29,926 nt of DNA from a virus (lineage: Duplodnaviria; Heunggongvirae; Uroviricota; Caudoviricetes), in the IMG/VR virus record IMGVR_UViG_2585427792_000002; one strand, 5' to 3'. Shown piece by piece: positions 9,410 through 29,926 of the stretch (within the stretch, counting starts at the first letter, position 1; every line of letters starts with the position of its first letter). The position numbers and the translations under genes were made by a program. The notes under the pieces were generated by a model, which was not told the DNA's origin, did no database searches, and was given only the letters and a program-made list of their open reading frames with translations.

Positions 9410-9414
9410 AATAT

Positions 9415-12203: not shown

Positions 12204-13826
12204 ATGCCGTTACCATTCCCCTTCGATTTTAAAAATCCTGATTACCAGATGGTTTTTGAATGGCGGATGGAACGCTTACAGCGCATTCGCCAGAACCCTG
12301 AAATATTGCCAGCACTAAAACAGTTTTACCGAACCAATCCGGCTCAGTTCATCATCGACTGGGGCATGACAACGGACCCGCGTAATATTGATTATGGCCT
12401 GCCGGTGACCATTCCGTTTTTACTCTTCCCTAAGCAGGAGGAGTGGATCCACTGGATTATGGAACGCTGGAGCAATCGGGAGAATGGTATTACCGAAAAA
12501 TCCCGTGAAATGGGGCTCAGTTGGACCGCGATCGGACTGGCATGCTCGCTTTGTCTCTTCAACAAAGAAATGGTTATCGGTTTTGGCTCCCGTAAAGAGG
12601 AATACGTCGACAGCACTGGTGACCCGAAAGCATTGTTCTGGAAGGCGCGCAAGTTCGTGGAAACGCTACCTGTAGAGTTTCGCGGTTCGTGGAGTGAGAA
12701 GAAGCACGCGCCATATATGCGTGTTGAGTTTCCTGAAACTGGTGCCGTTATCAAAGGCGAGGCTGGCGATAATATTGGTCGTGGTGACCGTACCACGCTT
12801 TATCTGGTTGATGAGGCTGCATTCCTTCAGCGTCCTCTGCTGATTGATGCGGCGTTGTCACAAACGACGCGTTGCCGTATCGACCTGAGTTCAGTTAACG
12901 GCATGGCTAACCCGTTCGCTCAGAAGCGTCATGGCGGGAAGATACCGGTATTCACATTCCACTGGCGGGATGATCCTCGCAAGGATGAAGAGTGGTATCG
13001 CAGGGAATGCGAGAAAATCGATAATCCGGTGGTGGTGGCACAGGAACTTGATCTGAACTACAGCGCATCAGCGGAAGGCGTCCTGATTCCATCCGAATGG
13101 GTACAGGCTGCCGTTGATGCGCATATCAGACTGGGTATCCAGCCAACAGGCAAACGACTTGGCGCGATGGATGTCGCTGATGAAGGCAGGGACAAAAATG
13201 CCTTTTCCACCCGTCATGGCTTCCTCCTGGAAAATGTGCGGGAATGGTCCGGTGTGGGCAGCGACATTTATCAGTCCGTCGAGAAGGTTTTCGGCTTTTG
13301 CGAACAGGACAACCTCGAAGAGTTTCGCTTTGACGAGGACGGGCTGGGCGCTGGCGTTCGCGGCGATGCACGCGCTATCAACGAACTGCGTAACGCTGCG
13401 CGTCGACCGTCAATACTTGCCACACCGTTTCGAGGTAGTGGCGCGGTATTTGATCCGGATGATGAAGCTGTTCGCGGGGACAACGGGCAAGCCGCACGTC
13501 TGAACAAGGACTTCTTCGCTAACGCCAAAGCCCAGAGCTGGTGGCGGTTACGTAAACTTTTTCAGAATACCTGGCGCGCCGTGGTTGAAGGTATGGCTTA
13601 CAACCCGGACGAAATCATCTCAATCAGCAGTAGCATGGCACTCAAAGATAAACTCATCATCGAGCTTTCGCAGCCGACCTATTCCATTAATGGTGTGGGA
13701 AAAATAGTTATTGATAAACAGCCTGATGGAACCCGATCGCCAAACCTTGCCGACTCGGTGATGATCAACTATGCCCCAATGAATTCAGCCCTGAACATCT
13801 GGGAGCTGCTAGGGAGACAGGCCTGA
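12204..13826 (+). CDS. Terminase large subunit (540 aa)
   Basis: Size and position (after the small subunit, before the portal); acidic motifs consistent with an ATPase/nuclease, but no HMM was run. Confidence 0.7.
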
Positions 13827-15292
13827 TGGCACGAAACAAACAAGCCCTGCGGCGAACTGCGCAGGCCACAGCTGATGGTTATGAGAATTTTATTGCCCGC
13901 GTAGGGATGCAGACAACTAACCAGCACTCAGCATCCACCTACCGGGCTAATTTCACCAGTCGTAACCGCATGCTGGTGGAATGGTCCTATCGTTCGTCCT
14001 GGATCATCGGCGAAGCGGTCGATGCTATCCCGGATGATATGACCCGCAAAGGCATTCGCATCACTTCGGAAATTGATGCAAAAGATCGCGGCATTCTCGA
14101 ATCACAACTGGATGAGTTGCAAATCTGGGATGCGCTGAATGACGTGCTGAAATGGTCGCGCCTCTACGGCGGCGCGGTGGGTTTCATCATGATTGAGGGG
14201 CAGGCACCAATGACCCCGCTGCGACCCGAAACCATCGGTAAGGGCAAGTTTAAGGGGATTCTCCCGCTCGACCGCTGGATGATTGACCCGGTACTGACCC
14301 GCCGCATTAAAGATATGGGGCCGGACCTGGGTAAACCTGAGTTTTACGATGTGGTGACCACAGCAACGGGAATTCCTGCCTGGCGCATTCATCACAGTCG
14401 ACTGATTCGCTTTGATGGCGTCACGCTGCCATTTCAGCAGAAGATGACCGAGAACGAATGGGGAATGTCGGTTGTAGAGCGTATCTGGGATCGTCTTACC
14501 GCGTTCGACAGCGCTACTGTCGGCGCGGCGCAGCTGGTCTACAAAGCGCATTTGCGTACCTACAGCGTGGAGAAGCTACGCGAGCTTATCGCACTTGGTG
14601 GTCCTGCGTATGAAGCGTTGCTGAAGAATATTGACCTGATTCGACAGTTCCAGAGCAATGAAGGCATGACTCTCATGGACTCGCGGGATAAGTTTGAAAC
14701 CCATCAGTACAGCTTCAGTGGTCTGGATGACATCCTTTCACAGTTTGCAGAACAGATTAGTGGCGCTGTTGGTATCCCACTGGTGCGGTTGTTCGGACAG
14801 TCCCCGAAGGGATTTTCTACCGGCGATGCAGACCTTGCCAACTATTACGACCGGGTAAGCTCGTTGCAGGAGAGGCGTTTACGTCTTCCGGTGCGGCGGA
14901 TACTGGACATCATGCATCGTTCGGAGCTTGGCAAGCCGCTGCCGGACGATTTCACGTTTGAGTTTAACCCGCTCTGGCAAATGTCTGATGTCGATCGCTC
15001 AACGGTGGCGTTAAACACTACCAACGCAATCAGTACAGCGCTGGGTGATGGTCTGATGACACTGAAAGCCGCTATGACTGATTTGCGAGAAAATTCTGAC
15101 GTAACCGGCATCGGGGCATCCATTACCGACGAGGACATAGAGAATGCCGAAGACGAAGCGCCGCCCGGCATCGGCGAACCTGATGACGAACCGCAGGAAC
15201 CGTCAGGCGGAAATCCGGTATCGAACCAGCCTACGCAGGATAGCGCGGGCGGTAGGGGACATCGTAAATGGTCACTACGATGGTTCAAATGA
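13826..15292 (+). CDS. Portal protein (488 aa)
   Basis: Position directly after the large terminase (ATG overlaps the terminase TGA), size, and acidic disordered C-terminal tail. Confidence 0.7.
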   Translation: MARNKQALRRTAQATADGYENFIARVGMQTTNQHSASTYRANFTSRNRMLVEWSYRSSWIIGEAVDAIPDDMTRKGIRITSEIDAKDRGILESQLDELQIWDALNDVLKWSRLYGGAVGFIMIEGQAPMTPLRPETIGKGKFKGILPLDRWMIDPVLTRRIKDMGPDLGKPEFYDVVTTATGIPAWRIHHSRLIRFDGVTLPFQQKMTENEWGMSVVERIWDRLTAFDSATVGAAQLVYKAHLRTYSVEKLRELIALGGPAYEALLKNIDLIRQFQSNEGMTLMDSRDKFETHQYSFSGLDDILSQFAEQISGAVGIPLVRLFGQSPKGFSTGDADLANYYDRVSSLQERRLRLPVRRILDIMHRSELGKPLPDDFTFEFNPLWQMSDVDRSTVALNTTNAISTALGDGLMTLKAAMTDLRENSDVTGIGASITDEDIENAEDEAPPGIGEPDDEPQEPSGGNPVSNQPTQDSAGGRGHRKWSLRWFK

Positions 15293-15917
15293 CAGTATCA
15301 CGGAAATTATTGAGGCGCTGGAACGCTACAGTGAAATCATCACCCCCTGGGCGACAAAGGTCGCGGAAAACTTTACCGCCGATATTGTGCGCAAGAATGA
15401 TGAGCAGTGGCGTAAACACAGCAAAACCATCAGCCGTGAGCTACGCAATCTGGTAAACAGTGCCCCGCCAGGGCAGGTGATGAAATCCATCGTTGCTGAA
15501 CAGGTTAAGTACATTAAATCGCTACCCCTCGAGGCGGCTGACAGGGTGTACGACATCCAGAATCGGGCGATTGAAGCTGTTGTGACCGGTGGGAGAGCGG
15601 AACATTTTGCTAAAGAAATAGCCGCATCGGGTGATATAGCAAAGTCCAGAGCTGACCTGATTGCCCGTACTGAACTTGGACGTGCAACCGGCGCGCTGGA
15701 TCAGGCGCGTGCGCTGGCAATTGGTTCGAATGGTTATATCTGGCGTACAGCCGAAGATGGTGACGTCAGGCATTCTCATCGGGAAATGGAAGGTAAATTT
15801 GTCGAATGGGGCAAACCTCCAACGCTTGATGGCATGACCGGTCACGCTGGCGAGCTCCCGAATTGTCGCTGTTATAAAGAAATCGTTTTTCCCACCTCCC
15901 ATTCTTATCCCGCCTGA
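15144..15917 (+). CDS. Head morphogenesis protein (Mu F / SPP1 gp7-like), start uncertain
   Basis: ORF after the portal in a different frame; the only in-frame ATGs (15144, 15183) lie inside the portal 3' end, giving a 110-149 nt overlap. Confidence 0.55.
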   Translation: MPKTKRRPASANLMTNRRNRQAEIRYRTSLRRIARAVGDIVNGHYDGSNDSITEIIEALERYSEIITPWATKVAENFTADIVRKNDEQWRKHSKTISRELRNLVNSAPPGQVMKSIVAEQVKYIKSLPLEAADRVYDIQNRAIEAVVTGGRAEHFAKEIAASGDIAKSRADLIARTELGRATGALDQARALAIGSNGYIWRTAEDGDVRHSHREMEGKFVEWGKPPTLDGMTGHAGELPNCRCYKEIVFPTSHSYPA

Positions 15918-15931
15918 ATCGCAGGTAACAC

Positions 15932-17152
15932 ATGAAATATTTTTTCAATACCCGGCTGGGGGAAACCCGCTATCAGCTGGCTGACGGCTCGTTGCTGTGC
16001 AAAGACGTGCCGATAGGACGAACAGGTAAGCAGCTCTATGGTGCTGATGACCTGCCAAAACTGAAACCCGATAAGTTCGGTGAAATAGTCGTCACGCGTT
16101 CTCCTGAGCAGGTATTCCATCCCGCCACGCTTGCCTCATTCGAAGGAATGAGTATCACGGTGTTGCATCCCGAGGATGAAAACGGGGATGTGCGGCTGGT
16201 GAATCCAGAGAACTGGAAAGAGCTCGCGGTCGGGCATCTTCAGAATGTCCGGCGCGGGACGGGTGTGCAGTCTGATTTGATGCTGGCTGACCTTATCGTC
16301 AAAGACGAAAACGCCATTCAGCTGATCGAAGATGGCCTGCGCGAAGTGTCGTGTGGCTATGACGCGGAATATAAGCAGACTGAGCCGGGTAAGGCTGAGC
16401 AGGTTGATATTACCGGAAACCATGTGGCTCTTGTCCCTAAAGGCAGAGCCGGAAATCGTTGTGCAATTGGAGACAGAGACACAATGGCAAATCAAAAGAA
16501 AAGCTGGTGGACCCGCATGCGCACGGCCATCAAAACGGGTGACGCTGACACCATGAACGAACTGGTGGAGTCGGCTCCCGCATCGGTTACAGGAGATGAG
16601 GGGGATTTGCCGCAGGGCGTTAATCTCAACATCAACCTGTCCCCGCAGCAACCGCTACCGGACAAAGCACCAGAGATGGGCGGAGGTCCAACGGGCGACA
16701 GTGATGATGACCTCAAAACATTACTGAAAGCCCTGCTGGCTAAGCTGGAAGGAAATGCGACGGGCGATAACGACAATAAGCCTGACGATAATCCGACCGG
16801 TGACGGCGAGGACGATGAAGAGGAAACCACGATTACTGGTGACTCAGCCTGGCGTGCCGAAGTTATCGTTCCGGGTATTGATCTGAGCCGTAAGATGAAA
16901 CCGACCGCGTTCAAACGTGAGGTTCTGGCTTCTGCTGACAAAACGCTGGTTCGCCAGATAGTCGGTGATGCGGATATCCGCAAATTGCCGAAACAATCAG
17001 TCGACATGGCGTTTAATGCCGTGTCTGAGATTGCCAAAGGGCGAAACACCCGCGCCACCACCGGCGATGCACAGCGCCCAAATATGGGCATGACCAGTAT
17101 CGCTTCCCTGAACAAACAAAACGCTGAATTCTGGGCAAACCGTAAAGGGTAA
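15932..17152 (+). CDS. Putative prohead protease / scaffold fusion protein (406 aa)
   Basis: Position between head-morphogenesis and capsid genes; highly acidic, low-complexity middle region (GDSDDD..., DGEDDEEE) typical of scaffolding domains. Confidence 0.5.
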   Translation: MKYFFNTRLGETRYQLADGSLLCKDVPIGRTGKQLYGADDLPKLKPDKFGEIVVTRSPEQVFHPATLASFEGMSITVLHPEDENGDVRLVNPENWKELAVGHLQNVRRGTGVQSDLMLADLIVKDENAIQLIEDGLREVSCGYDAEYKQTEPGKAEQVDITGNHVALVPKGRAGNRCAIGDRDTMANQKKSWWTRMRTAIKTGDADTMNELVESAPASVTGDEGDLPQGVNLNINLSPQQPLPDKAPEMGGGPTGDSDDDLKTLLKALLAKLEGNATGDNDNKPDDNPTGDGEDDEEETTITGDSAWRAEVIVPGIDLSRKMKPTAFKREVLASADKTLVRQIVGDADIRKLPKQSVDMAFNAVSEIAKGRNTRATTGDAQRPNMGMTSIASLNKQNAEFWANRKG

Positions 17153-17155
17153 AAA

Positions 17156-17662
17156 ATGAATAATGTATTTCTGTACCGGATGCCTGTTGGCATTGCCGGG
17201 GCTGTCTCTCGCCCGCAGGACTTAACCGTCGAACCGGTGGTCCTTAAATCCGATAACGCCTTTGCTGCCTATGGGCTGGCTGGTAAATACGATGATGACG
17301 GTTTTTTCGTGCCGCTGGCAGATGGTGATACCGCAGACAAGGTGAAGGGGATCTACGTGCGCCCTTATCCGACCACGTCGCAGCCGGACATGGTTCGCCA
17401 GGTGGGAACAGGCAAGAACTTCCCGGGCGACGCAATGAAGCGTGGCTACGTGACCGTTAATCTCGGTTCTGATTTTGATGCCAGCACCATCAAAAAAGGC
17501 GACCCGGTATACGTTGTCGTCTCCACTGATGAATCCATCAAAGTGCCGCTGGGTGGATTCATGGCCACGTCAGTCAGTGGCAAAAACGTGGTGCTGACCA
17601 ACGCTGAATTCACAGGTGCCGGTGATGCTAACGGCAATGCAGAAATTTCCTGGAAGATTTAA
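17156..17662 (+). CDS. Head-associated protein (possible decoration/cement protein, 168 aa)
   Basis: Compact ORF immediately upstream of the major capsid gene; assignment by position only. Confidence 0.45.
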   Translation: MNNVFLYRMPVGIAGAVSRPQDLTVEPVVLKSDNAFAAYGLAGKYDDDGFFVPLADGDTADKVKGIYVRPYPTTSQPDMVRQVGTGKNFPGDAMKRGYVTVNLGSDFDASTIKKGDPVYVVVSTDESIKVPLGGFMATSVSGKNVVLTNAEFTGAGDANGNAEISWKI

Positions 17663-17673
17663 GGAACAGACGA

Positions 17674-18615
17674 ATGATTACTTTTGATCAGGCAACCGTT
17701 GACAGCTCTGGTGCCTTTCTCATCGGGGAGCTGGAGCGACTCGACCAGACGCTGAACCTGCCACTGGTGGGGTACACCTGGACCCGCGATATCCAACTGC
17801 GTGAAGATGTCTCCATCGCAGATGACATTTCCAGCTGGACGAATACCAGCTTCGCCGCTGCGGGTACTGGTGCAAATCCGAATGGCAAAAACTGGGTAGG
17901 CAAAGACTCAACCGCTATTGCTGGCGTGAACGTGGATATCGGCAAATCTGGTAACCCGCTGAACCTGTGGGGGATGGAACTTGGCTGGACGGTCATAGAA
18001 TTGCAGGCTGCTCAGCAGGTCGGCCGCCCGATTGATACGCAGAAGTATGACGGTATGCAACTGAAATGGCAGATGGATAACGATGAACAGGTATATGTTG
18101 GCGATTCCGCATTAAACCTGAAAGGCCTTGTTACCCTGGACGGCGTGCCTGTCAACAACGCTGCCAAAACGTGGGCAACCTCAACACCGGACGAAATCCG
18201 CGCAAGCATTAACCAGGTACTGTCTGATGCGTGGGCCGCTTCCGGTTACTCTGTGGTTCCGCGTGATTTGCTGATCCCGCCTGAGCAGTTTGCTCTGTTG
18301 TCCAGCATCATCGTTTCATCTGCGGGTAACCAGTCCCTGTTGACGTACCTTCAGACCAACACCATCAGCTATCACCAGAACGGTATTCCGCTGAATATCC
18401 GCGCGGTTAAATGGCTGAAAGGCCGTGGTGTGGGGAATAAGGATCGCATGGTTGCGTACACCAACGATAAAAAATACGTCCGCTACCCGCTGGTTCCGCT
18501 TCAGAGCGTGCCGGTGCAGTATCGCGGTCTGTATCAGATCGTCACTTACTACGGCAAGCTGGGTGCAGTCGAGCCAGTGTACAAAGAAACCATTTCGTAC
18601 GTTGATGGCATTTAA
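17674..18615 (+). CDS. Major capsid protein (313 aa)
   Basis: Position and size within the head module; followed by a strong GC hairpin. Confidence 0.6.
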   Translation: MITFDQATVDSSGAFLIGELERLDQTLNLPLVGYTWTRDIQLREDVSIADDISSWTNTSFAAAGTGANPNGKNWVGKDSTAIAGVNVDIGKSGNPLNLWGMELGWTVIELQAAQQVGRPIDTQKYDGMQLKWQMDNDEQVYVGDSALNLKGLVTLDGVPVNNAAKTWATSTPDEIRASINQVLSDAWAASGYSVVPRDLLIPPEQFALLSSIIVSSAGNQSLLTYLQTNTISYHQNGIPLNIRAVKWLKGRGVGNKDRMVAYTNDKKYVRYPLVPLQSVPVQYRGLYQIVTYYGKLGAVEPVYKETISYVDGI

Positions 18616-18622
18616 CAGCCAC

Positions 18623-18643
18623 ATGGCCCCCTGGCGGGGCCAT
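18623..18643 (+). promoter_or_regulatory. GC-rich stem-loop immediately 3' of the capsid gene (no U-tract)
   Basis: ATGGCCCC(18623-18630)/GGGGCCAT(18636-18643), 8-bp perfect stem with 5-nt loop; next gene's AAGGA and ATG follow directly. Confidence 0.3.
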
Positions 18644-18656
18644 TAAGGATGACCCG

Positions 18657-18878
18657 ATGGCAAAAAATAATGCAGTAATACACGTACATACCCCGTTTGT
18701 GCTCACGCTTCCCGACGGTTCACGGCGCGAGTTTGTTAAAGGCCGTCATGCTGTGGAGGAAGACGTTGCCACGCACTGGTTCACTCGTGCGCACGCGGAA
18801 GTATCCGTTGGCAAAGCCACAGACGCGCGTAACGAGGTAAAAAATGCCAAAGAATCAAAGTCTGCCAGCGGTAAGTGA
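18657..18878 (+). CDS. Hypothetical small protein (73 aa)
   Basis: ORF with AAGGA Shine-Dalgarno directly after the capsid-gene hairpin. Confidence 0.5.
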
Positions 18879-19251
18879 TTTTCGCCGCGACTTCCCGCAG
18901 TTTGCTGACCCTGCCAAATATCCCGAAGCGCAAATCCAGTTTCGTCTGAATCTGGCCGATGAACTGCTGAGCGAAAACGTCACCGGCAAAAAGTTGTTTC
19001 CGTACTTTGCCGGGTTGTTCGTTGCGCACTACATGACGCTCTGGGCGGCAGACAGCCGGGCGATGCTGGCTGGTGGTTCGGGCGGTTCAACCAATGGTGT
19101 TCAGTCCTCAAAGTCCGTGGATAAGGTAAGCGTCAGTTATGACACCAGCGCGACGCTGAATCCTGATGCAGGTTTCTGGAATAACACCCGATATGGCGCT
19201 GAATTTTATCAGTTGATCACGATGTTCGGTGCAGGCGGTCGCCAGCTATGA
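18844..19251 (+). CDS. Putative head-tail connector / head completion protein (135 aa)
   Basis: Position in the head-to-tail joining block; overlaps the upstream ORF. Confidence 0.5.
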
Positions 19252-19802
19252 GTTTCAAAAGCGGTGTAACAACGAGGGTGGATAACGCTAAGGCCATTCT
19301 GGATGCGCTCAGGTCGTTAACCAAAAAAGATGTGCTGGTCGGCATCCCTTCGGAAGACAGCGAGCGGGATGATGTTCCGTTTGGTAATGCGGGCATCGGT
19401 TACCTCAACGAATACGGCTCACCAGAGCAGAACATCCCGCCACGACCTCACCTGATCCCCGGCGTTAAATCGGTAGAGGAACAGACGTTGCCGCAGCTCA
19501 AAACAGCGGCGCAGGCTGCGCTTGATGGAAATGCGGCGGGGGCGGAAAGAGCGCTCAACCGCGCCGGAACGCTGGCCGCTAATGGCGTCAGGCGTTACAT
19601 GACTATTACCGGCTTTACACCGCTTGCTGATAGCACCGTTGAAGCCCGCGCGCGTCGAGGGCGTAAAGGGGCGAAAGCGGAACTTGCCCGGCGTGCTGCT
19701 GGCGAATCTCCCGGAACCGATCTGGCGAAACCATTAATTGACACCGGGCAATATCGCAGAGCTATTACCCATGTAGTGAGGGATAAAGATGCCGACTCTT
19801 GA
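19248..19802 (+). CDS. Putative head-tail adaptor protein (184 aa)
   Basis: Overlapping start/stop with neighbours; position between head and tail genes. Confidence 0.5.
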
Positions 19803-20178
19803 TGTAACAGATGTGCTTTTTGACCCCGATTTTTGCGACTTCAATTTGTGGGTAACACGCCGAGTGCAAACGGTGGATGAGGACGGGATCGGCAGCGACA
19901 GCGAAGTTAAAAAGCAGTTTGCCGGAGTCGTAACTGTTGATCGCTCTCTGGAAAACCGCCGTATGCAGGCAGGGCAGGTAATCAGCGGTGCAATTCTGAT
20001 TGTGACGACTGAGCGACTGACGCAGGGACAGACTGGCCGTGATGCCGATATCGTGACGTATCAGGGCCGTGATTATCGTGTGACCTTCGTCGACCCGTAT
20101 ACAGCTTATGGTGCCGGATTCGTTCAGGCGCATTGTGAGTTGCTGCCGTTTGATGGGGGAATTCCGGTTGAGCAATAA
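19789..20178 (+). CDS. Putative head completion / tail attachment protein (129 aa)
   Basis: Co-linear overlapping ORF in the head-tail joining block. Confidence 0.5.
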   Translation: MPTLDVTDVLFDPDFCDFNLWVTRRVQTVDEDGIGSDSEVKKQFAGVVTVDRSLENRRMQAGQVISGAILIVTTERLTQGQTGRDADIVTYQGRDYRVTFVDPYTAYGAGFVQAHCELLPFDGGIPVEQ

Positions 20179-20716
20179 CACCAGTACAGAGCGCGGATGG
20201 CTGATACCAACCAGTGGCGATCCGGATTATGACGAAGCGCTCGACAGGCTGTTAAGCCAGTGGATGCGTAACGTTTCCGGTCTGTCTGCCGGGATGGTTC
20301 GCCCGCGCTGGCAGAAAGAGCAGCCGCCACTGCTACCGGCTGAAACGAACTGGTGTGCGTTTGGGGTTATCGGATGGTCAGGTGATGACAGTCCGGCATT
20401 CACCAGACAGACCGATGATGGCTCTAAGCTCTGGCGGCATGAAACGATTGAGTGTATGGCTTCGTTTTATGGTCCGGCGGGGATGGTGTATGCGTCCCGG
20501 TTTCGTGACGGTATATCTGTACCGCAGAACAATGCAGCACTGAATGCGCTGGGGCTGTCTCTTGGCGATTACACAGGTCTGACCCCCTTCCCTGAACTTA
20601 TTAATCAGCAATGGGTCCGCCGCTACGATATGACGGTGCGCCTGCGCCGGAAGGTTGTGCGCGAGTACGGTATTAAATCGCTGGTGGAAGCACCAGTCAT
20701 CTTTTTCGGAGATTAA
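20153..20716 (+). CDS. Putative tail completion / neck protein (start uncertain)
   Basis: ORF-track frame; ATG at 20153 overlaps the upstream gene by 26 nt; the track's 20108 start overlaps further. Confidence 0.45.
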   Translation: MGEFRLSNNTSTERGWLIPTSGDPDYDEALDRLLSQWMRNVSGLSAGMVRPRWQKEQPPLLPAETNWCAFGVIGWSGDDSPAFTRQTDDGSKLWRHETIECMASFYGPAGMVYASRFRDGISVPQNNAALNALGLSLGDYTGLTPFPELINQQWVRRYDMTVRLRRKVVREYGIKSLVEAPVIFFGD

Positions 20717-20719
20717 GCT

Positions 20720-21865
20720 ATGGCACAGGGCTTGCCTGTATCAAACGTTGTTAATGTTGATGTGATCATGTCGCCGCGTGCAGCATCAGGGCGAAATTTT
20801 GGTGCATTACTCATTCTCGGCCCGTCCACAATCATTCCGGTAAGTGAGCGCATTCGCCGTTATTCTGCCGCGGAAGATATTGGAAAAGATTTTGGCGTGG
20901 AATCACCAGAATATAAGGCTGCGCAGGTGTTTTTCTCACAATCACCGAAACCTCAGGAGGTTTTTGTTGGTCGTTGGGTGAAAACGAAGGGTGACAGCGA
21001 ACAGGCCACGCCTGAGACGCTGGAGCAGGCTGTGAATGCCATGCTCGATTATACTTCATGGTATGGGCTGGGGATTGCAGACGATGAAGATATTCCGGAT
21101 GCAGACTGGCTGAAAGTGGCTGCGGCGATCGAATCCTCTTCTGTAAGCCGTATTCTGGCGATTACGACAAGCGATGATAAATGCCTGCAGACTGCATCCA
21201 GCGATGATTTGGCATCAAAACTGAAAACCGCCGGATATTCACGCAGTTTTATTCAGTATTCATCGGGTAATAAATACGCTGCGTTATCTGCATTTGGCCG
21301 GGTATTCACGGTTAATTTCAATGGCAGTAATACCGCGATTACGCTCAAGTTTAAGCAGGAGCCGGGTGTCGGGTATGAAACACTGACAGTCAGCCAGGCA
21401 TCGGCACTTGATGCAAAAAACTGCAATGTATTCGTGTACTACCAGAATGATACGGCTATCCTCCAGCAGGGAGTGATGGCTAACGGCGATTTCTTTGATG
21501 AACGCCACGGCCTGGACTGGTTACAGAATTATGTGCAGACCAACCTCTATAACCTGCTTTATACCAGCACCACGAAAGTTCCCCAGACTGAAGCCGGTAT
21601 TACCCGACTGTTATCAAATGTTGAAAAATCACTGGATCAGGCCGTTCAGAATGGACTGATTGCTCCGGGCGTATGGAACGGGGGCGACCTTGGTCAGTTG
21701 TCATCAGGTGACACACTGCCCAAAGGTTATTACGTATACGCCCAGCCGCTGGATGAACAGGCACAATCAGAACGTGAAGCCCGTAAGGCTCCGGTGATTC
21801 AGGCTGCAATAAAACTTGCAGGCGCGGTTCATTACGCTGACGTACAGATTAATGTTGTTCGCTAA
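20720..21865 (+). CDS. Putative tail sheath-like protein (381 aa)
   Basis: Gene order large (381 aa) - small (146 aa) - chaperone with frameshift - tape measure is typical of sheath-tube-chaperone-TMP in contractile tails; no HMM confirmation. Confidence 0.5.
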
Positions 21866-21875
21866 GGGGAAGTGA

Positions 21876-22316
21876 ATGTCTACCTATTCTTTTATGGATG
21901 TCACTGCGACGCTGACCGGCCCGACCGGTTCGATTGACCTCGGGTACGGTTCTGCAAGTTCTGAAGAGGGGATTGTGGTTGCGATGGGCGGTCCTAAAAA
22001 CACCATGACCATCGGTGCTGATGGTGAAGTGATGCACAGCCTCCATGCAGATAAAAGCGGGACGATTACCGTTAACCTTCTGAAGACATCACCGACAAAT
22101 AAAAAATTGTCGCTGGCGTATAACGCACAGAGCCAGTCTTCTGCCACATGGGGGAATAACGTTATCGTGATCCGCAACAAGGTCAGCGGCGACATCATCA
22201 CGGCACGCAGTGTTGCGTTCCAGAAACAACCGGATAATGCCAACGCTAAAACCGGTAATACGATGCCGTGGGTGTTTGACTGCGGCAAGATTGACCAGGT
22301 TCTCGGGGAGTTTTAA
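21876..22316 (+). CDS. Putative tail tube protein (146 aa)
   Basis: Position directly after the sheath-like gene and before the tail assembly chaperone. Confidence 0.5.
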   Translation: MSTYSFMDVTATLTGPTGSIDLGYGSASSEEGIVVAMGGPKNTMTIGADGEVMHSLHADKSGTITVNLLKTSPTNKKLSLAYNAQSQSSATWGNNVIVIRNKVSGDIITARSVAFQKQPDNANAKTGNTMPWVFDCGKIDQVLGEF

Positions 22317-22319
22317 TAC

Positions 22320-22772
22320 ATGGAGTTCGAAATCAAAGGCGTGAAATATCGCGTGGCAAAACTCAGCGTTTTTGACCAACTGAAAGTGACCCGCAAACTT
22401 CTGCCGGTGCTGGCAGGAATGATGTCAGATTTCGGGAGCATTCGCTCCCGTTTGCCTGCTGATGGCAAAATCGACACCGTGAAATTCGAGCAGTTAAAAC
22501 CGGTGTTTGAAACCATGCTCCCGCGTATCGCTGAGGAACTGTCTTCCCTGACCGAAGATGACACCAGTGCGATTATTCATCCCTGTCTTGCGGTGGTATC
22601 GCGGCGTCATATGGACGGATGGGTTCCGGTATTTACCCAGGGCGAACTGATGTTTGATGATATTGACTTGCTGGTCATGCTGCAGCTGGTGGCGCGGGTG
22701 GTCGCCGATTCGCTGGGAAATTTTTTGCCTACACCCCTTACCAGCACGACGCAGAGCCTGCAACAGGGCTGA
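22320..22772 (+). CDS. Tail assembly chaperone (150 aa); -1 frameshift product predicted to extend to 22960
   Basis: Slippery sequence GGGAAATTTTTTG at 22715-22727 near the 3' end; the -1 frame is open from 22667 to a TGA at 22958-22960, overlapping the tape-measure start. Arrangement analogous to lambda G/GT. Confidence 0.6.
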   Translation: MEFEIKGVKYRVAKLSVFDQLKVTRKLLPVLAGMMSDFGSIRSRLPADGKIDTVKFEQLKPVFETMLPRIAEELSSLTEDDTSAIIHPCLAVVSRRHMDGWVPVFTQGELMFDDIDLLVMLQLVARVVADSLGNFLPTPLTSTTQSLQQG

Positions 22773-22949
22773 CGTTTAACAGCCTGCCGGACGGGCTGTC
22801 CTACCTTCTCAATCCGGTTGACGCCGGGTTAATTCCTTATACAGCACTTAAAGATGGCTCTGTCGATTTGTACGATATTGCTCTTTTGAATGACCATCTG
22901 GCGGTAAAAGCGGATAACCAGCGGCGCATTGAGAAATGGAGAGAGGATA

Positions 22950-24938
22950 ATGAACGCTGAAACTATTAAAGATTTCCTCGTCTCGCTTGGCTTCAGTGTG
23001 GATGATGCAGGAGCGAAAAAGTTCGGTTCTGTCCTCGCCGGTACAACTGCAAATGTCATCAAAATGGGGCTGGCCGTTGAAGGAGCCGCGCTGTCCGTGG
23101 TGGCCTTCACGGCTAAGATCGCCTCCGGTCTGGATAATCTTTACTGGGCGTCACAGCGCACTGGAGCGACAGTCCAGGGAATTCAGTCTATTGGCTATGC
23201 GGTTTCGCAGGTTGGCGGCAGCGTGGACGCTGCGCGATCTTCTCTGGAAAGCCTCTCCCGGTTTATTCGTAATAATCCCGGTGCAGAGGGATTTCTGAAT
23301 CGCCTGGGGGTACAGACACGGGATGCCAGCGGTAACATGCGTGACATGGCCGCTATTTTTACAGGTGTAGGCCAGAAGCTCAGCGGCATGCCGTATTACC
23401 GGGCTAACCAGTATGCGCAGATGCTGGGCATTGACGAAAATACCCTTATGGCGATGCGTCGGGGTGTGGGTGGTTTCTCCGGGCAGTACAGCGCAATGGC
23501 GAAAGCTATCGGCTTCAATGCTGACGAGGCGGCCAGAAGCTCCAACAAATTTATGACCTCCCTGCGTGAGTTTAGCGCGATGGCAGGCATGGCCCGTGAC
23601 AAAATCGGCTCTAATCTTGCGGGTGGGCTTGCGGGTTCGCTGGACCCCCTGCGCCGCCATATCCTGGACAACTTCCCTCGTATCGAGCTGACCCTGACGA
23701 AAGCCATAAAAGGCATTCTGGCGCTCGGGGATATTATCGGGCGGCTGTTCTTCAGACTGATTGAAGGAACATCAGGTCTCATCACCTGGTGGCAATCGCT
23801 GGATAAGCAAACGCGGCAGTTGATCTCGCTGTTTGGCGCACTGACGATTGCGCTGCGCATTCTGAACAGTACGTTCTGGATGTCGCCGATTGGCCTTATT
23901 ACTGCGCTGGCGGCGGGGATTGCCCTTCTGTGGGAGGACTATCAGACCTGGAAGGAAGGCGGCGACAGCCTGATTGACTGGGGCAAGTGGAAACCGGAGG
24001 TCGATGCCGCGTTGAAGATGGTTCGTGACCTTAAAACAACCGTTAACGACCTGGCGAAAGCGCTGGCGAAACTGCTCAATATTGACCCCAAATCATGGTC
24101 CCTGAAGTGGGATTTCAGCAACTTCATCGACCAGATGGGCGAATTCAGCAAAATGCTGAACATGATCGCCGACCTGCTCAACGCTATCAAAGATGGCCGC
24201 TGGGCTGATGCCGTCAGCATCAGCAAACAGATACTTAATCAGGGCAGCGAAAATCCGTCAGCGATGCCGATGGTTACAGACAGCGCTAACAGTACTGCCG
24301 ACTGGATTAAAGAGCACTGGGGATTCGATCCTCGCAGCGTGGGCCGGACGGTACGCGGCTGGTTTGGTGATGATGAGCCGGAACAATATGCACAGGCTAC
24401 GAAACGAGGAGAACGGAATAACAATCCGGGAAACCTTAATTTTGCTGGTCAGGCAGGGGCTTCTCTTGAACGCCCGGGCGGGCGATTTGCCAGATTTGAA
24501 ACTGCTTTTGATGGATTACGGGCTCTTGCTCGTCAGTTAATGCTGTACGCCGGACGGGGAATAAACAGTGTGGAGAAAATTATCTCTACCTGGGCACCTG
24601 CGTCTGATAATAACAACACAACTGCGTATATCAGGGCTGTATCGCAACGACTGGGAGTGGATCCCCGGGCTGCCCTGAATATGAGCGATCCGCAAACCAT
24701 GTCAGCATTGATGAGCAGCATTATCCAGCATGAAAATGGAAGAAATATCTATTCCCGAGAGCTGATTAATAAGGCTGCCGTGGCAGGAATTAGTGGCAAA
24801 GTGACAGAGGTTAACCAGCAAAATACCTACCACATTTACGGTGGCGGAGATCCGCACGCTGTCGGTAATGAGGTTGCACGTCGGCAACAGTCTGCAAATG
24901 CTCAGGTCATGCGAAGTAATCAGGTGAGGGTGGGTTAG
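22950..24938 (+). CDS. Tail tape measure protein (662 aa)
   Basis: Largest gene in the tail block, directly after the frameshift chaperone; Ala/Gly-rich helical N-terminal part with hydrophobic segments; ATG at 22950 preceded by GAGAGG. Confidence 0.7.
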   Translation: MNAETIKDFLVSLGFSVDDAGAKKFGSVLAGTTANVIKMGLAVEGAALSVVAFTAKIASGLDNLYWASQRTGATVQGIQSIGYAVSQVGGSVDAARSSLESLSRFIRNNPGAEGFLNRLGVQTRDASGNMRDMAAIFTGVGQKLSGMPYYRANQYAQMLGIDENTLMAMRRGVGGFSGQYSAMAKAIGFNADEAARSSNKFMTSLREFSAMAGMARDKIGSNLAGGLAGSLDPLRRHILDNFPRIELTLTKAIKGILALGDIIGRLFFRLIEGTSGLITWWQSLDKQTRQLISLFGALTIALRILNSTFWMSPIGLITALAAGIALLWEDYQTWKEGGDSLIDWGKWKPEVDAALKMVRDLKTTVNDLAKALAKLLNIDPKSWSLKWDFSNFIDQMGEFSKMLNMIADLLNAIKDGRWADAVSISKQILNQGSENPSAMPMVTDSANSTADWIKEHWGFDPRSVGRTVRGWFGDDEPEQYAQATKRGERNNNPGNLNFAGQAGASLERPGGRFARFETAFDGLRALARQLMLYAGRGINSVEKIISTWAPASDNNNTTAYIRAVSQRLGVDPRAALNMSDPQTMSALMSSIIQHENGRNIYSRELINKAAVAGISGKVTEVNQQNTYHIYGGGDPHAVGNEVARRQQSANAQVMRSNQVRVG

Positions 24939-25525
24939 TGGATATTCTCTCTACACTTTTTCATCAGCAGAGCAGAAAAATAGGAATGATTGTTCCCAGT
25001 GTTGTTATTTCAGAGAAGCATACAGATATGCTTGAAATAACAGAGCATCCGGTAGAGGTCGGGGCTGCTGTCGCTGATCATGCCTATAAAAAACCGTCAG
25101 AAGTGGTGATGGAGGTTGGTTTCGCCGGTGGCGGCGCATTGCTGGATTTTGCCAGTAACCTGACGGCTACCAGCCTGCTCGGCCTGAGTCCTCAGCAGAC
25201 GTATCAGGAGCTACTGGATCTGCAGGAAAGCCGTATCCCCTTCGATGTGGTAACCGGTAAACGGCTGTACAGCAACATGTTGATCCGGGCGCTGGAAGTG
25301 ACGACGGACAAGACAACCGAAAACGTCCTGTCCGCCGTCCTCACCCTGAGGGAGGTCCTTATCTCCCGGACACAGCAGATCACCGTCGCTGATAAAACCA
25401 ACATGAAGGAAGGGGCCAGCACGTCGGCGGTACAGAACAGCGGCAACAAAACCACAAAGCCTCCAGATACTTCACTGCTGAAAAGCATCACGGGTAACGT
25501 GGTGTCATTACTGGGAGGCGGATAA
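24938..25525 (+). CDS. Tail protein (post-tape-measure), family undetermined
   Basis: ORF-track ORF with GTG start overlapping the tape-measure stop; an alternative internal ATG is 16 codons downstream (24986). Confidence 0.45.
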   Translation: MDILSTLFHQQSRKIGMIVPSVVISEKHTDMLEITEHPVEVGAAVADHAYKKPSEVVMEVGFAGGGALLDFASNLTATSLLGLSPQQTYQELLDLQESRIPFDVVTGKRLYSNMLIRALEVTTDKTTENVLSAVLTLREVLISRTQQITVADKTNMKEGASTSAVQNSGNKTTKPPDTSLLKSITGNVVSLLGGG

Positions 25526-25827
25526 TGACAATTCAGGAAATTCCGCTGACAGCGGACAACCAGCAGTTCAGCATCGTCCTGGGTGGTGTCACCTGGCGGA
25601 TTAGCATCATATGGCGCGATCCTTACTGGATTATGGACCTGCAGAACGACAGAGGGGAGCCGGTAATCTCCGGTATACCTCTCGTCACTGGCGCTGACCT
25701 GCTGGCGCAGTACGCCTGTATGGGACTTGGTTTTAAGCTGTTGGTGGTCTGCGATGACAACACACAGGATTATCCCACGAAAACTGACCTGGGCGGGCGC
25801 AGTCATTTACTGGTATCAACGGAGTAA
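25525..25827 (+). CDS. Small tail/baseplate-associated protein (100 aa)
   Basis: Start overlaps the upstream stop; position in the distal tail block. Confidence 0.45.
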   Translation: MTIQEIPLTADNQQFSIVLGGVTWRISIIWRDPYWIMDLQNDRGEPVISGIPLVTGADLLAQYACMGLGFKLLVVCDDNTQDYPTKTDLGGRSHLLVSTE

Positions 25828-25829
25828 GC

Positions 25830-26897
25830 ATGACACAGAACTGGATGAGACATTTCGAGCTGCAGCTTGTGGACGGGAACGGTCAGGGAATTGAGCTAAG
25901 TGATTTCAAAGTCACCTTTACGATCGACTGGTTCAACATCAGCAGCGCGTCCCGGGTAGGGACTATCAAAATTTATAACCTCTCGGCAGATACTGTGAAC
26001 CGAATTACCGGGCAGGAGTTTTCGAAAGTGCGTCTGATTGCGGGTTACGACGGTATCGCGCCGGAGGTGTCGGCAAGCGATGTCGGGACCGTGCGGGAGG
26101 TTGATGCGGCGGACGTGGGCCAGAGTGATGGCCGCAACTACGGACTGATTTTCAGCGGTGAAATTCGCTACTCGGTCACAGGAAAAGACAGCCCGGTTGA
26201 TTCCTACGTCCTGATTCAGGCAGCCGATACAGATCTGGCTTTTGCCACCAGTATAACCTCACAGACGCTGGCTGCCGGTTACACGGTCGCTGATGTGAAC
26301 CGTGCGCTGATGAAAGACTTCGAAGCCAAAGGTGCGACCGAAGGCCTGACGCCTGAAATGCCTGCTACTGTATTCCCCCGGGGGCGGGTACTCTTTGGCA
26401 TGACGCGGCATCTTATGGATAATGTAGCCGGGCAATGTGGCGCAACATGGCAATTCGTGGATGGTCAACGCCAGATGGTGGCGAATAATGAATATGTTCA
26501 CGAAGCGATTGTGCTCAACAGCGCTACCGGGCTTATTGGCATGCCGCAGCAGACTATCGGTAACGGCGTAAACGTCCGCGCGCTTATTAATCCGAACATC
26601 CGGGTTAACGGGCTCATTCAACTGGATCAGGCTTCAGTGTATCGTACCGCGTTGTCGAACAACGATATCGCGATGGCCGGTGGGCAGATCACCGACCAGA
26701 ACACGGACGGAAATATTACGCTAAGCGGCACCACATCGCAGCCTGCCAGCATCGCAACGGATGGCGTTTATATTGTGCGTGGGATTATGTACACTGGCGA
26801 CACAAGGGGGCAGGCGTGGTACATGGATATGATGTGTGAAGCACGTGGCGCGGCTGATCTACTTTCGTCCTCAGCGCAGCAAAGGATTTATTCATGA
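25830..26897 (+). CDS. Tail/baseplate protein (355 aa), family undetermined
   Basis: ORF-track ORF co-linear with tail genes; last phage-like structural gene before the AT-rich cargo. Confidence 0.5.
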   Translation: MTQNWMRHFELQLVDGNGQGIELSDFKVTFTIDWFNISSASRVGTIKIYNLSADTVNRITGQEFSKVRLIAGYDGIAPEVSASDVGTVREVDAADVGQSDGRNYGLIFSGEIRYSVTGKDSPVDSYVLIQAADTDLAFATSITSQTLAAGYTVADVNRALMKDFEAKGATEGLTPEMPATVFPRGRVLFGMTRHLMDNVAGQCGATWQFVDGQRQMVANNEYVHEAIVLNSATGLIGMPQQTIGNGVNVRALINPNIRVNGLIQLDQASVYRTALSNNDIAMAGGQITDQNTDGNITLSGTTSQPASIATDGVYIVRGIMYTGDTRGQAWYMDMMCEARGAADLLSSSAQQRIYS

Positions 26898-27241
26898 AGC
26901 GTATGAAGTTAGTTTTGACAATTTCGTTATTATTTTCTTGTTCAGCAGCTTTTGCTGATTTGCAATGCGGCGGATATCTACTTCATGCAGCTGATAACGG
27001 TTGGACAAAAATCAACGGTGAGCAGGTAACATCACAGAAGATTACGTTTCTTGGTAAGAAAGATGACTGGGACAACGTTAAAACTAACATGGGCCTGATG
27101 CCTTCTCGCGATGGCAACAATTACGGCTTTGAGTTTGTGAAGCGTAACGGAAAAGCTTTCCTGAACGTCCAGCTTCTGCAGAACAGCATGGATGCGCCTA
27201 AAATCATCGGATCATTCCCTTGTAAAAAGGCGTTACGCTAA
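26894..27241 (+). CDS. Small secreted/periplasmic protein with Sec signal peptide (115 aa)
   Basis: N-terminus MKRMKLVLTISLLFSCSAAFA-DLQ has a basic n-region, hydrophobic core and AxA-like cleavage site; the mature part (about 94 aa) has two Cys; AT-rich codon usage unlike the tail genes. Confidence 0.65.
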   Translation: MKRMKLVLTISLLFSCSAAFADLQCGGYLLHAADNGWTKINGEQVTSQKITFLGKKDDWDNVKTNMGLMPSRDGNNYGFEFVKRNGKAFLNVQLLQNSMDAPKIIGSFPCKKALR

Positions 27242-27336
27242 AGTTTGATGTCAATCTTCCGAGATGAGCGCTTTAAGGTTGACGAGATATTGTTCAAAGT
27301 TCACAATCACAATCCCTTTAGTAAGAGAAATAATCC

Positions 27337-28110
27337 ATGGCGGCAGGCATCCCATTAGAAAAAGCGCAAAAATATATTGAACAATTCAATGCGCTTCTAT
27401 TGGATAGGGAAAGTTTAGATCCCTTCACTGAAAAGAAAATTCGAGAGGAACTTTCTGTCTCTCCAACGCCTGCTACCAACATTGCACTATCTTATCTGGA
27501 TGCAATAACCGGAAAGATTGAAAGCGCGTTACGTTATCTCAGGATAAGCCTAGAAGTAAACGATGTAACGTTGGCAATGCACTATCATCACATTTTAATT
27601 AATACATTTAGCTATAATGAACTCAAGGATGTCTATGTCCCGCTGGCAAAGAAGTATCGGACAAAACTCTTTAGTCACAACGCATACAGTTGGGCGTACC
27701 GTTGCGGCGAGCGTGAACAGTTAAAATTTTATATGGAAGAGCACATTAAGCTTCTTTCTGAATCAGAAGGCAGGAGTAATGCTATGAAGCACAAAGAAGA
27801 ACTCCTTGCAGAAATGGATAATTTCTATAGCGCCACACAGTGCTCGAAGGAACAGTTCCAGACCTTAGCATCCATAATCTGGGGCTTGCTAAGTGAATAC
27901 AAGGCTACGACAGGTTTCGTTCAGCTTAGTGGAAGCGGTTGCTATGTTGTTGATATTAAAAATCTTGAGCCTAAAACTATTGCCAAAATGAACTTCGACT
28001 TGGCTGATAGAGTCTGCGCTGAATCTAAACTGGATGATTGTTCCCTGTTAGCTAGATTTACCTCTCCGCGTCAGTTGCATACGGGGGTGAGCTACCATGT
28101 CGGTAACTAG
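27337..28110 (+). CDS. Hypothetical protein (257 aa), first gene of AT-rich two-gene cargo module
   Basis: ORF-track ORF; AT-rich; predicted largely helical by composition; overlaps the downstream ORF by 14 nt (co-translated pair). Confidence 0.6.
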   Translation: MAAGIPLEKAQKYIEQFNALLLDRESLDPFTEKKIREELSVSPTPATNIALSYLDAITGKIESALRYLRISLEVNDVTLAMHYHHILINTFSYNELKDVYVPLAKKYRTKLFSHNAYSWAYRCGEREQLKFYMEEHIKLLSESEGRSNAMKHKEELLAEMDNFYSATQCSKEQFQTLASIIWGLLSEYKATTGFVQLSGSGCYVVDIKNLEPKTIAKMNFDLADRVCAESKLDDCSLLARFTSPRQLHTGVSYHVGN

Positions 28111-28378
28111 CAATCAGATTCTCGATACCGCTCGATTATGTCTGTCTGAAAATATTGAGAGTGGATTTCGAAGCGCTATCTCAAGGGCGTATTACAGTAT
28201 GTTACATGAGTCTATTAGCTCACTTACTGCCATACCGCATTTTACCCATGAGCATCACAAAAATACTGTGGGTTATATGTCAACGCCCTCAGAGTGCAAA
28301 TCAGAGCCATACCCGACAAATACACTGAAATCCCTAGCTTTCGTACTTCGCCAGTGGCGGGATGCTAGAAATGAATAG
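28097..28378 (+). CDS. Hypothetical protein, C-terminally truncated by the IS2 insertion (93 aa as read)
   Basis: The stop codon TAG (28376-28378) is formed by the first three bases of the IS2 left inverted repeat (TAGACTGG...), so the native 3' end is probably displaced beyond the IS. Confidence 0.5.
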   Translation: MSVTSNQILDTARLCLSENIESGFRSAISRAYYSMLHESISSLTAIPHFTHEHHKNTVGYMSTPSECKSEPYPTNTLKSLAFVLRQWRDARNE

Positions 28379-28805
28379 ACTGGCCCCCTGAATCTCCAGA
28401 CAACCAATATCACTTAAATAAGTGATAGTCTTAATACTAGTTTTTAGACTAGTCATTGGAGAACAGATGATTGATGTCTTAGTAGACTGGCCCCCTGAAT
28501 CTCCAGACAACCAATATCACTTAAATAAGTGATAGTCTTAATACTAGTTTTTAGACTAGTCATTGGAGAACAGATGATTGATGTCTTAGTAGACTGGCCC
28601 CCTGAATCTCCAGACAACCAATATCACTTAAATAAGTGATAGTCTTAATACTAGTTTTTAGACTAGTCATTGGAGAACAGATGATTGATGTCTTAGGGGC
28701 CGGAGAAACGCAGAAGCTCCAGACAACCAATATCACTTAAATAAGTGATAGTCTTAATACTAGTTTTTAGACTAGTCATTGGAGAACAGATGATTGATGT
28801 CTTAG
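28376..28805 (+). repeat. Tandem array: about four copies of a 107-bp unit derived from the IS2 left end
   Basis: Copies start at 28376, 28483, 28590 (exact 107-bp period, identical) and 28697 (109 bp, leading 18 nt replaced by GGGCCGGAGAAACGCAGAAG). Each carries the 89-bp core CTCCAGACAACC...ATGATTGATGTCTTAG including the orfA start codon. Confidence 0.85.
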
Positions 28806-29155
28806 GGCCGGAGAAACGCAGACGGCGTACCACACAGGAAAAGATCGCAATTGTTCAGCAGAGCTTTGAACCGGGGATGACGGTCTCCCTCGTTGCCCGG
28901 CAACATGGTGTAGCAGCCAGCCAGTTATTTCTCTGGCGTAAGCAATACCAGGAAGGAAGTCTTACTGCTGTCGCCGCCGGAGAACAGGTTGTTCCTGCCT
29001 CTGAACTTGCTGCCGCCATGAAGCAGATTAAAGAACTCCAGCGCCTGCTCGGCAAGAAAACGATGGAAAATGAACTCCTCAAAGAAGCCGTTGAATATGG
29101 ACGGGCAAAAAAGTGGATAGCGCACGCGCCCTTATTGCCCGGGGATGGGGAGTAA
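28790..29155 (+). CDS. insC: IS2 transposase OrfA (InsC-like, 121 aa)
   Basis: Product [40 protein letters not shown]... (HTH) matches IS2 OrfA from memory; the ORF track's longer 28745 start runs through the repeat. Confidence 0.85.
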
Positions 29156-29926
29156 GCTTAGTCAGCCGTTGTCTCCGGGTGTCGCGTGCGCAGTTGCACG
29201 TCATTCTCAGACGAACCGATGACTGGATGGATGGCCGCCGCAGTCGTCACACTGATGATACGGATGTGCTTCTCCGTATACACCATGTTATCGGAGAGCT
29301 GCCCACGTATGGTTATCGTCGGGTATGGGCGCTGCTTCGCAGACAGGCAGAACTTGATGGTATGCCTGCGATCAATGCCAAACGTGTTTACCGGATCATG
29401 CGCCAGAATGCGCTGTTGCTTGAGCGAAAACCGCTGTACCGCCATCGAAACGGGCACATACAGGCAAAGTGGCCGTGAAAGAAAGCAATCAGCGATGGTG
29501 CTCTGACGGGTTCGAGTTCCGCTGTGATAACGGAGAAAAACTGCGAGTCACGTTCGCGCTGGACTGCTGTGACCGTGAGGCACTGCACTGGGCGGTCACT
29601 ACCGGCGGCTTCAACAGTGAAACAGTACAGGACGTCATGCTGGGAGCGGTGGAACGCCGCTTCGGCAACGATCTTCCGTCGTCTCCAGTGGAGTGGCTGA
29701 CGGATAATGGTTCATGCTACCGGGCTAATGAAACACGCCAGTTCGCCCGGATGTTGGGACTTGAACCGAAGAACACGGCGGTGCGGAGTCCGGAGAGTAA
29801 CGGAATAGCAGAGAGCTTCGTGAAAACGATAAAGCGTGACTACATCAGTATCATGCCCAAACCAGACGGGTTAACGGCAGCAAAGAACCTTGCAGAGGCG
29901 TTCGAGCATTATAACGAATGGCATCC
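29113..29926 (+). pseudogene. insD: IS2 transposase OrfB (InsD-like, DDE domain), apparently frameshifted; partial at window end
   Basis: The N-terminal frame (29113...) stops at 29476-29478 (...[18 protein letters not shown]), while the recognisable continuation ([15 protein letters not shown]...[10 protein letters not shown]...) runs in the frame one base back, from about 29472 to the window end. Confidence 0.55.

Follow-up and report, generated by a model that had tools for sequence, protein, structure and literature searches.

Accessory gene pair of a predicted HEPN protein and a TPR-like partner, interrupted by IS2, in the hub-spike slot of a lambdoid prophage

What are the two small, low-GC genes that lie among the tail genes at positions 27337-28378 of the viral record IMGVR_UViG_2585427792_000002, and what has IS2, which follows them directly, left of their function? 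The window, i.e. the whole analysed stretch of 29,926 nt, is a lambdoid prophage with a contractile-tail module. A preliminary description, made from the letters alone, had read these positions as a non-structural cargo module of two overlapping open reading frames (ORFs), of 257 and, as read, 93 amino acids (aa), the second one being cut by IS2. Our analysis bears this out. The pair, named here A and B (Table 1), is an accessory two-gene cassette. It occupies a hypervariable slot for cargo, flanked by the genes of the baseplate hub and of the spike. On balance, it is probably an uncharacterised toxin-antitoxin-like (TA-like) or abortive-infection module, which was inactivated in this prophage by IS2.

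The gene pair and its interruption by IS2

Genes A and B overlap by 14 nt. Protein A falls into phrog_17809 (E 1e-115) and B into phrog_5176 (E 9e-40), both of them families of unknown function, and 63 distinct B sequences share 10 invariant residues; judged from these matches and this conservation, both ORFs are real genes. The low GC content ascribed to the pair was confirmed (42.3% versus 53.0% in the tail genes at 12204-26893), although it is not the minimum of the window, as 13.5% of equal-sized segments are equally low or lower. At third codon positions (GC3) the values are 0.42 for A and 0.40 for B, compared with 0.61 for the adjacent hub gene.

IS2 starts at position 28376 (TAGACTGGCCCCCTG...), and its first three bases serve as the stop codon of B. 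The search for an uninterrupted copy, which had been proposed as a check, was performed by megablast with positions 26894-28376 and revealed the module in 27 of 5426 complete E. coli genomes. All 27 carriers contain the stretch from A through B to a terminator in one piece (at least 98.2% identity), and in none of them is B a 93-aa protein with a TAG stop of its own, or joined to IS2 as in the window. As uninterrupted B is 131 aa long in every carrier, IS2 has removed 38 residues. The copy of E. coli 357900 (locus L001; A-B at 2777205-2778513 of NZ_CP038859.1) is 100% identical to positions 26894-28375; its B gene (L001 7204-7599) reads ...RDARNE|ADYDLTNVTVSKEMGQDAIEAAELYFERWEQLKSARVS, i.e. 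38 codons beyond the cut, and is followed by a hairpin with a UUCG loop and a T-run, which form the terminator, and then by the spike gene. In 24 of the 27 complete carrier genomes the intact B gene is unannotated: a single coding sequence is annotated under the A-B stretch, leaving an apparent intergenic gap of 440 nt 5' of the spike gene.

The IS2 copy itself is unusual. From position 28713 to the end of the window, its identity to a K-12 IS2 copy (nt 15-1229 of the latter) is 99.3%. There are 8 mismatches over 1215 nt, and a 1-nt deletion (at about 29432/29433) shifts the frame of orfB (ERKPAVPP... becomes ERKPLYRH...stop); the copy may be defective, or sequence errors may be present. The matching places in E. 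coli genomes carry the annotation 'IS3-like element IS2 family transposase'. At the left end, the sequence agrees fully with nt 1-107 of K-12 IS2 and is arranged as a tandem array. Three perfect head-to-tail copies of nt 1-107 (28376-28696) are followed by an irregular joint of 22 nt, composed of IS2 nt 108-124 with an extra G before the switch, by a fourth, partial copy (28719-28805) and then by normal IS2. Each unit comprises the left inverted repeat, the orfA promoter region and the first six orfA codons, and the repeat units join precisely at the terminus of the IS. The array may be a genuine rearrangement, or it may have arisen in assembly.

Could the disruption of B, too, be an artefact of assembly, with an intact gene in the real genome? 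The junction of nt 107 with nt 1 occurs in none of the 5426 complete E. coli genomes, the IS2 copy bears the frameshift described above and the window ends within the element, all of which would fit such an explanation. However, a second IMG/VR contig, IMGVR_UViG_2585427779_000001, is 100% identical to window positions 22337-28482 (6146 nt) and has the same junction, which is located exactly at the IS2 terminus. Since this contig is independent, we regard the insertion as real and the artefact as very improbable. After nt 107 the second contig continues with canonical IS2 and ends 5 nt further on.

As the window ends at position 29926, inside orfB, it reaches neither the right end of the IS nor the target duplication, nor the 3' part of B that was displaced. 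The expected right junction consists of the IS2 right inverted repeat and a 5-bp duplication (probably ATGAA), followed by GCTGACTATGATCTG...

HEPN features of B and its TPR-like partner A

The preliminary description had noticed the peptide SRAYYSMLHES in B as faintly reminiscent of HEPN motifs. A profile of 22 B homologues, compared with the Protein Data Bank (PDB), matched 9xbd (E 2.6e-6) and 9xbc (1.1e-5), both titled 'HEPN domain-containing protein', as well as AF0298 (2hsb; 2e-3), with residues 26-125 aligned. Partners of distant A relatives scored 23.9 (cut-off 22), 18.8 and 15.5 bits against Pfam PF05168. A structure model (AlphaFold2) was built on homologue P0001, which is 89% identical to intact E. 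coli B. The model (mean predicted local distance difference test score, pLDDT, 89.4) contains helices at residues 5-17, 21-43, 74-95 and 105-130, with an insert between helices 2 and 3 (44-73). Its best match in the PDB is again 2hsb (probability 1.0, template modelling score 0.66-0.68), followed by the sacsin HEPN domain, MntA-HepT and Csx1. By profile and by modelled fold, B thus belongs to the HEPN superfamily and to the AF0298-like HEPN-T type, nearest to AF0298/UPF0332. Homologues of B, 123-138 aa in length, are found in Citrobacter, Klebsiella, Cronobacter, Kluyvera, Lelliottia, Rahnella, Phytobacter, Enterobacter, Aeromonas and Vibrio, and some sources label them 'HEPN domain-containing protein' or 'UPF0332'.

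The earlier hunch was therefore right about the fold and mistaken about the motif: the R-x6-H that it cited is a conserved signature of helix 2, whereas the motif at the catalytic position is R91-N-E-A-D95-Y96 at the end of helix 3, where R91 is invariant and an aspartate stands in place of the histidine of canonical Rx4-6H. The ten residues invariant in the 63 B sequences, down to 21% identity, are E21, R25, R30, Y32, Y33, H54, L84, R91, D95 and Y96, of which H54 is located in the helix 2-3 insert. The same replacement of H by D was described for AF0298-like HEPN-T proteins and AbiV, and it was suggested that the active site could there be completed by an alternative conserved histidine located in the insert (Anantharaman et al. 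2013, PMC3710099). The polar cluster E21, R25, R30, H54, R91, D95 and Y96 is predicted to form a ribonuclease (RNase) active site.

A different possibility is that B is a catalytically inactive HEPN protein, i.e. a nucleotide or RNA binder or an adaptor, and that the pair has a regulatory or lysogenic-conversion role and is not a toxin module. The aspartate in place of the canonical histidine speaks for this, as does the fact that several HEPN families are considered non-catalytic (PMC3710099), and our literature search revealed no described function for the closest solved relatives, 2hsb and 9xbd. We nevertheless think it unlikely: the residues that remain invariant are mostly charged or polar and include H54 at the proposed alternative catalytic site, AbiV, which is placed with the alternative-histidine type, was reported to be an active RNase (bioRxiv 10.1101/2024.05.05.592566), and the scaffold of A is interchangeable with an RNase toxin module (HicB-HicA, see below).

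Whatever the chemistry of the intact protein, the copy in the window has almost certainly lost it. IS2 cuts B between E93 and A94, inside the invariant R91-x3-D95-Y96 motif, so that D95, Y96 and helix 4 (residues 105-130) are missing and the HEPN domain is incomplete. The 93-aa product cannot form the four-helix bundle. As two invariant motif residues and the fourth helix are gone, the effector B is almost certainly dead in this prophage, and A is left intact.

In the model of A (pLDDT 91.7), residues 7-139 form eight TPR-like helices, residues 146-187 two long helices and residues 192-242 a small beta-beta-alpha-beta domain. The first of these regions is an array of helix-turn-helix repeats as in TPR proteins. 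An exhaustive profile search assembled 122 cluster representatives of the A family, nearly all of them 250-260 aa long and aligned end to end, and some members reach Pfam TPR models. Searches of Pfam, PADLOC and NCBIfam assigned A to no family beyond phrog_17809. A profile check on both proteins had been recommended earlier; in the PDB, where B finds HEPN proteins, whole A and its C-terminal domain alone find only repeat or designed proteins. Judging by these searches, the C-terminal alpha/beta domain has no known relative, and A looks like a non-enzymatic binding protein.

Three assignments were considered and rejected. A is not recognisable as a nucleotidyltransferase, as neither the whole protein nor its C-terminal domain matches one in Pfam, NCBIfam or the PDB, and the GSG...D of the E. 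coli allele is not conserved in the family. Its C-terminal domain is not HicB-like (hhalign against the HicB of locus L018, probability 0.07%). Finally, the protein that accompanies the YafO toxin in the same slot of other prophages (see below) is not a relative of A (hhalign probability 0.4%).

Two phage-borne relatives of A, of 324 and 317 aa, are 44% identical to each other (L017 199-1376 and L212 5001-6157). Both have the full A architecture (hhalign probability 99.2% for the 324-aa protein), an additional C-terminal HicB-like extension (PF08972, weak) and a HicA toxin gene immediately 3'. In these loci the A scaffold is thus combined with a different RNase toxin system, HicB/HicA.

Co-occurrence and genomic context of the cassette

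Loci seeded by A or B were collected from complete genomes, from NCBI, Logan and JGI contigs and from IMG/VR (128 loci, among which some contigs were fetched more than once, with overlap). The partner gene is adjacent in every one of the 125 loci of this sample that could be assessed, in the order A then B, with a spacing of -122 to +15 nt; the exceptions to pairing are two loci in which A is cut by the contig end, and the HicA variant. A second sample was seeded by the hub protein and consists of 80 prophage contigs from IMG/VR (loci L131-L210), all with hub proteins of at least 97% identity. A complete hub-to-spike slot (equivalent to window position 26898 up to the spike gene) is present in 71 of them. 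A and B occur together in 33 of these slots, and neither A alone nor B alone was found in any. They are co-directional, overlapping or abutting small genes that always co-occur, as is the case for the genes of type II-like TA modules.

The slot varies from 372 to 1726 nt in length. In the 38 slots of 71 without A-B, the cargo is unrelated. At 9 loci it consists of a YafO toxin (PF13957, E 4e-17) preceded by a protein of 192 aa; the other contents are a membrane protein with DUF2335, a secreted protein whose OB fold is tRNA_anti-like, a transmembrane protein that weakly matches PycTM, together with an ORF of 59 aa, a lipoprotein-like protein of 241 aa, and a 170-aa protein with an RNNLFH (HEPN-like) motif. 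The pair itself is present in at least six divergent allele combinations. E. coli AH19B041 carries in the same slot (L003 4490-5640) an A' about 18% identical to A over its full length and a B' 39% identical to B. Divergence of this degree, with nearly identical tail genes on either side, suggests that alleles have been replaced or that the cassette is under strong diversifying selection.

Beyond this slot, the pair was found directly 3' of a CI-like repressor gene, in a lambda-like tail region with hicAB and accessory genes of the Bro/KilA/Arc type as neighbours, adjoining an Arc/Ant-type region in another myovirus, near integrase and lysis genes, upstream of the tape-measure gene of Klebsiella phage ST405-OXA48phi1.3, and, in a P2-like Vibrio phage, between the genes for the portal and for gpA. 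That position lies in the gpA-gpQ region, which was defined as the defence hotspot of P2-like phages of E. coli (Rousset et al. 2022, PMC9122126). A DNA search of 50,697 phage records gave no match, and at the protein level the phage records yielded only the above Klebsiella phage and one Vibrio phage. B was not found in the plasmids searched.

These data bear on the question of whether the pair may serve the lytic programme of the phage itself, either as a late RNase that remodels host or phage RNA or, through A, as a chaperone in baseplate assembly. The genes are oriented like the late tail genes and have their place between hub and spike, alleles that have diverged strongly (37-43% identity in B) persist in this very slot, and TPR proteins are often assembly chaperones. 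However, more than half of the prophages with an almost identical hub dispense with the pair and have unrelated cargo instead, the YafO pair included; the same two genes occur at unrelated positions and in other phage types; the intact locus has a terminator and promoter-like sites of its own; and its GC3 is far below that of the tail genes. We therefore consider a role in the phage's own lytic programme distinctly unlikely, and the early suggestion of non-structural cargo agrees with the distribution of the pair.

The features of this part of the window are listed in Table 1. The gene of the 115-aa protein is a semi-conserved first gene of the slot, present in 38 of the 71 slots alongside differing cargoes, and lies outside the A-B pair; in some prophages that retain A-B it is swapped for a gene of the STY1065/STY2022 family. 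The promoter-like sites, TTGACG-17-CACAAT and ATCACA-17-AATAAT (L001 6386-6441), are consensus matches, the count of which in the scanned region is not above chance. Rfam and repeat scans of the A-B region revealed nothing relevant. Elsewhere in the window, a lambda cIII thermoregulator RNA element (170-228, minus strand) and two tRNA genes (9335-9487) were recorded.

Table 1. Features of the hub-proximal part of the slot and of the IS2 insertion (window coordinates).
Feature	Position	Strand	Remarks
Baseplate hub gene, gp41-like, 355 aa	25830..26897	+	Pfam PF22759 E217_GP41, E 6e-5; left edge of cargo slot
Gene of 115-aa protein, N-terminal signal-peptide/lipoprotein-like segment	26894..27241	+	phrog_3443, E 1e-53, unknown function
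Two overlapping sigma-70-like promoter matches	27279..27334	+	within the 95-nt gap 5' of A
Gene A	27337..28110	+	257 aa; predicted helical TPR-like protein, obligate partner of gene B
Gene B, truncated	28097..28378	+	codons 1-93 of the gene of a 131-aa predicted HEPN protein; stop TAG at 28376-28378 from IS2
IS2 (IS3 family), left end first	28376..29926	+	same direction as A-B; window ends in orfB
Tandem array of IS2 left end	28376..28805	+	Tandem Repeats Finder period 107, 4.0 copies; copy-by-copy comparison

A toxin-antitoxin-like or abortive-infection role

Among the known systems, the AF0298-like HEPN-T proteins (PF05168, UPF0332; 2hsb, 9xbd/9xbc) are the closest to B. They share with it the four-helix bundle of about 125-131 aa, SRxYY in helix 2, R-x2-[AS]-D-Y where helix 3 ends and a conserved histidine in the helix 2-3 insert. 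In contrast to them, B itself misses the Pfam model, is borne by prophages of Enterobacteria and relatives, and does not stand alone, its partner being a TPR protein and not a nucleotidyltransferase.

The gene arrangement resembles that of HepT/MntA (HEPN-MNT, type VII TA), in which a small HEPN toxin gene also lies downstream of its partner gene and overlaps it, and the B model has weak structural similarity to HepT (6m6w, 7bxo). However, HepT has the canonical Rx4H where B has R-x3-D-Y, and A lacks the signature of a minimal nucleotidyltransferase (MNT), with no conserved GS...DxD. A-B was therefore rejected as a HEPN-MNT system.

AbiV of Lactococcus, an anti-phage RNase for which a preprint gives the consensus motif Rx4-6H (bioRxiv 10.1101/2024.05.05.592566), was placed in the same alternative-histidine type as the relatives of B (Anantharaman et al. 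2013, PMC3710099). Unlike B, it is larger and is neutralised by RNA rather than by a TPR protein. HEPN genes accompanied by TPR or Sel1 repeat proteins, in the same operon or fused, are known from the LA2681 and AbiU2 operons (Anantharaman et al. 2013, PMC3710099). These resemble A-B in the type of partner, but have the canonical Rx4-6H and belong to other HEPN clades, a separation made here from their description. No TPR/Sel1 association of the AF0298-type clade was found in the literature searched.

HepS of Gifsy-1 (PMC13043305) and Tha of S. aureus prophages (PMC11087260) are prophage HEPN effectors of abortive infection, activated by tail-tip and tail proteins, respectively; Tha is inhibited by Ith. 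Like A-B as we propose it, they are prophage cargo with a HEPN effector that is inactive until triggered by phage structural proteins. HepS differs in acting alone, with no partner protein, and in having a canonical motif (R100-H105), and the inhibitor of Tha is a small protein encoded antisense. The PDB profile search showed no sequence relationship of B to either of them, the presence of a HepS structure in that copy of the PDB being unconfirmed. A link to HicAB is provided by the two A relatives described above and by one locus in which hicAB adjoins A-B; the A protein of the window, however, has no HicB-like domain, and its toxin partner would be a HEPN protein, not HicA. Taken together, A-B is classified as a putative HEPN toxin module with a different partner, of which this copy is broken.

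Several observations point to a TA-like function of the intact pair: its strict co-occurrence and translational coupling, the combination of a non-enzymatic upstream partner with a small downstream HEPN protein that has an invariant polar site, its own terminator and promoter-like sites, its polymorphism, being present or absent in a slot where a YafO toxin pair can stand instead, its positions, which are typical of accessory genes expressed in lysogens, and the reuse of the A scaffold with HicB/HicA. The disrupted toxin-antitoxin or defence locus proposed in the preliminary description thus seems to remain the best reading. From the above we infer RNase activity of B, its neutralisation by A, a trigger and a possible defence phenotype, which might be connected as follows. 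A would bind B and hold the RNase inactive, its TPR surface being a candidate sensor of a phage or cell signal; once freed, B would cleave RNA, by which the infection would be aborted or the loss of the prophage penalised. By analogy with HepS, Tha and AbiV, the likely role would be abortive infection or superinfection exclusion.

Some of our results weigh against this reading. A-B is co-oriented inside the late tail operon, and alleles with a B only 37-43% identical keep the same slot, as discussed above. Intact B has no match in Pfam or NCBIfam, and the Pfam model PF05168 misses it even at E 10; its catalysis would depend on the alternative-histidine hypothesis, as the canonical histidine is absent. 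A far exceeds typical antitoxins in size, no DNA-binding or enzymatic domain is recognisable in it, and the conservation across its family is confined to an 'MN..LA' helix and some, mostly hydrophobic, positions. It has no match in NCBIfam either. A search of PADLOC-DB v2.0, a library which we take to hold an AbiV model, gave no match for A, intact B or the 115-aa neighbour at E up to 1. As far as can be judged from this, the one defence catalogue tested, no link of A-B to known defence systems was found.

The literature yielded nothing on WP_000718774, on 9XBD, or on HEPN together with UPF0332, and the accessions of the pair were not found in the available part of the DefensePredictor supplements.

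A bolder version of the TA-like reading may be put forward tentatively. A-B could represent a previously unrecognised family of prophage abortive-infection systems, in which the TPR partner is antitoxin and sensor at once and the non-canonical HEPN RNase stays inactive until an incoming phage supplies a protein to which A binds; recombination would have joined the sensor scaffold also to HicB/HicA, and the hub-spike slot would be a dedicated hotspot. We hold this fuller scenario to be possible, but less likely than not.

The practical message for the window is that its module is broken by IS2. The significance of the intact pair lies in the fact that HEPN RNases are recurrent effectors of bacterial immunity and of TA systems. 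A-B differs from these in two respects: a HEPN protein of the poorly understood AF0298 type, in which the canonical catalytic histidine is absent, is coupled to a partner of the TPR type and not to a nucleotidyltransferase, and no PADLOC-DB v2.0 model is matched. If the reconstructed pair proves to be toxic or protective, the alternative-histidine hypothesis of the active site would be put to the test, and a defence or addiction family that occurs in prophages of Enterobacteriaceae, Aeromonas and Vibrio would be added to those known. The junction of baseplate hub and spike genes in a common lineage of E. coli prophages would then constitute a cargo hotspot worth mining.

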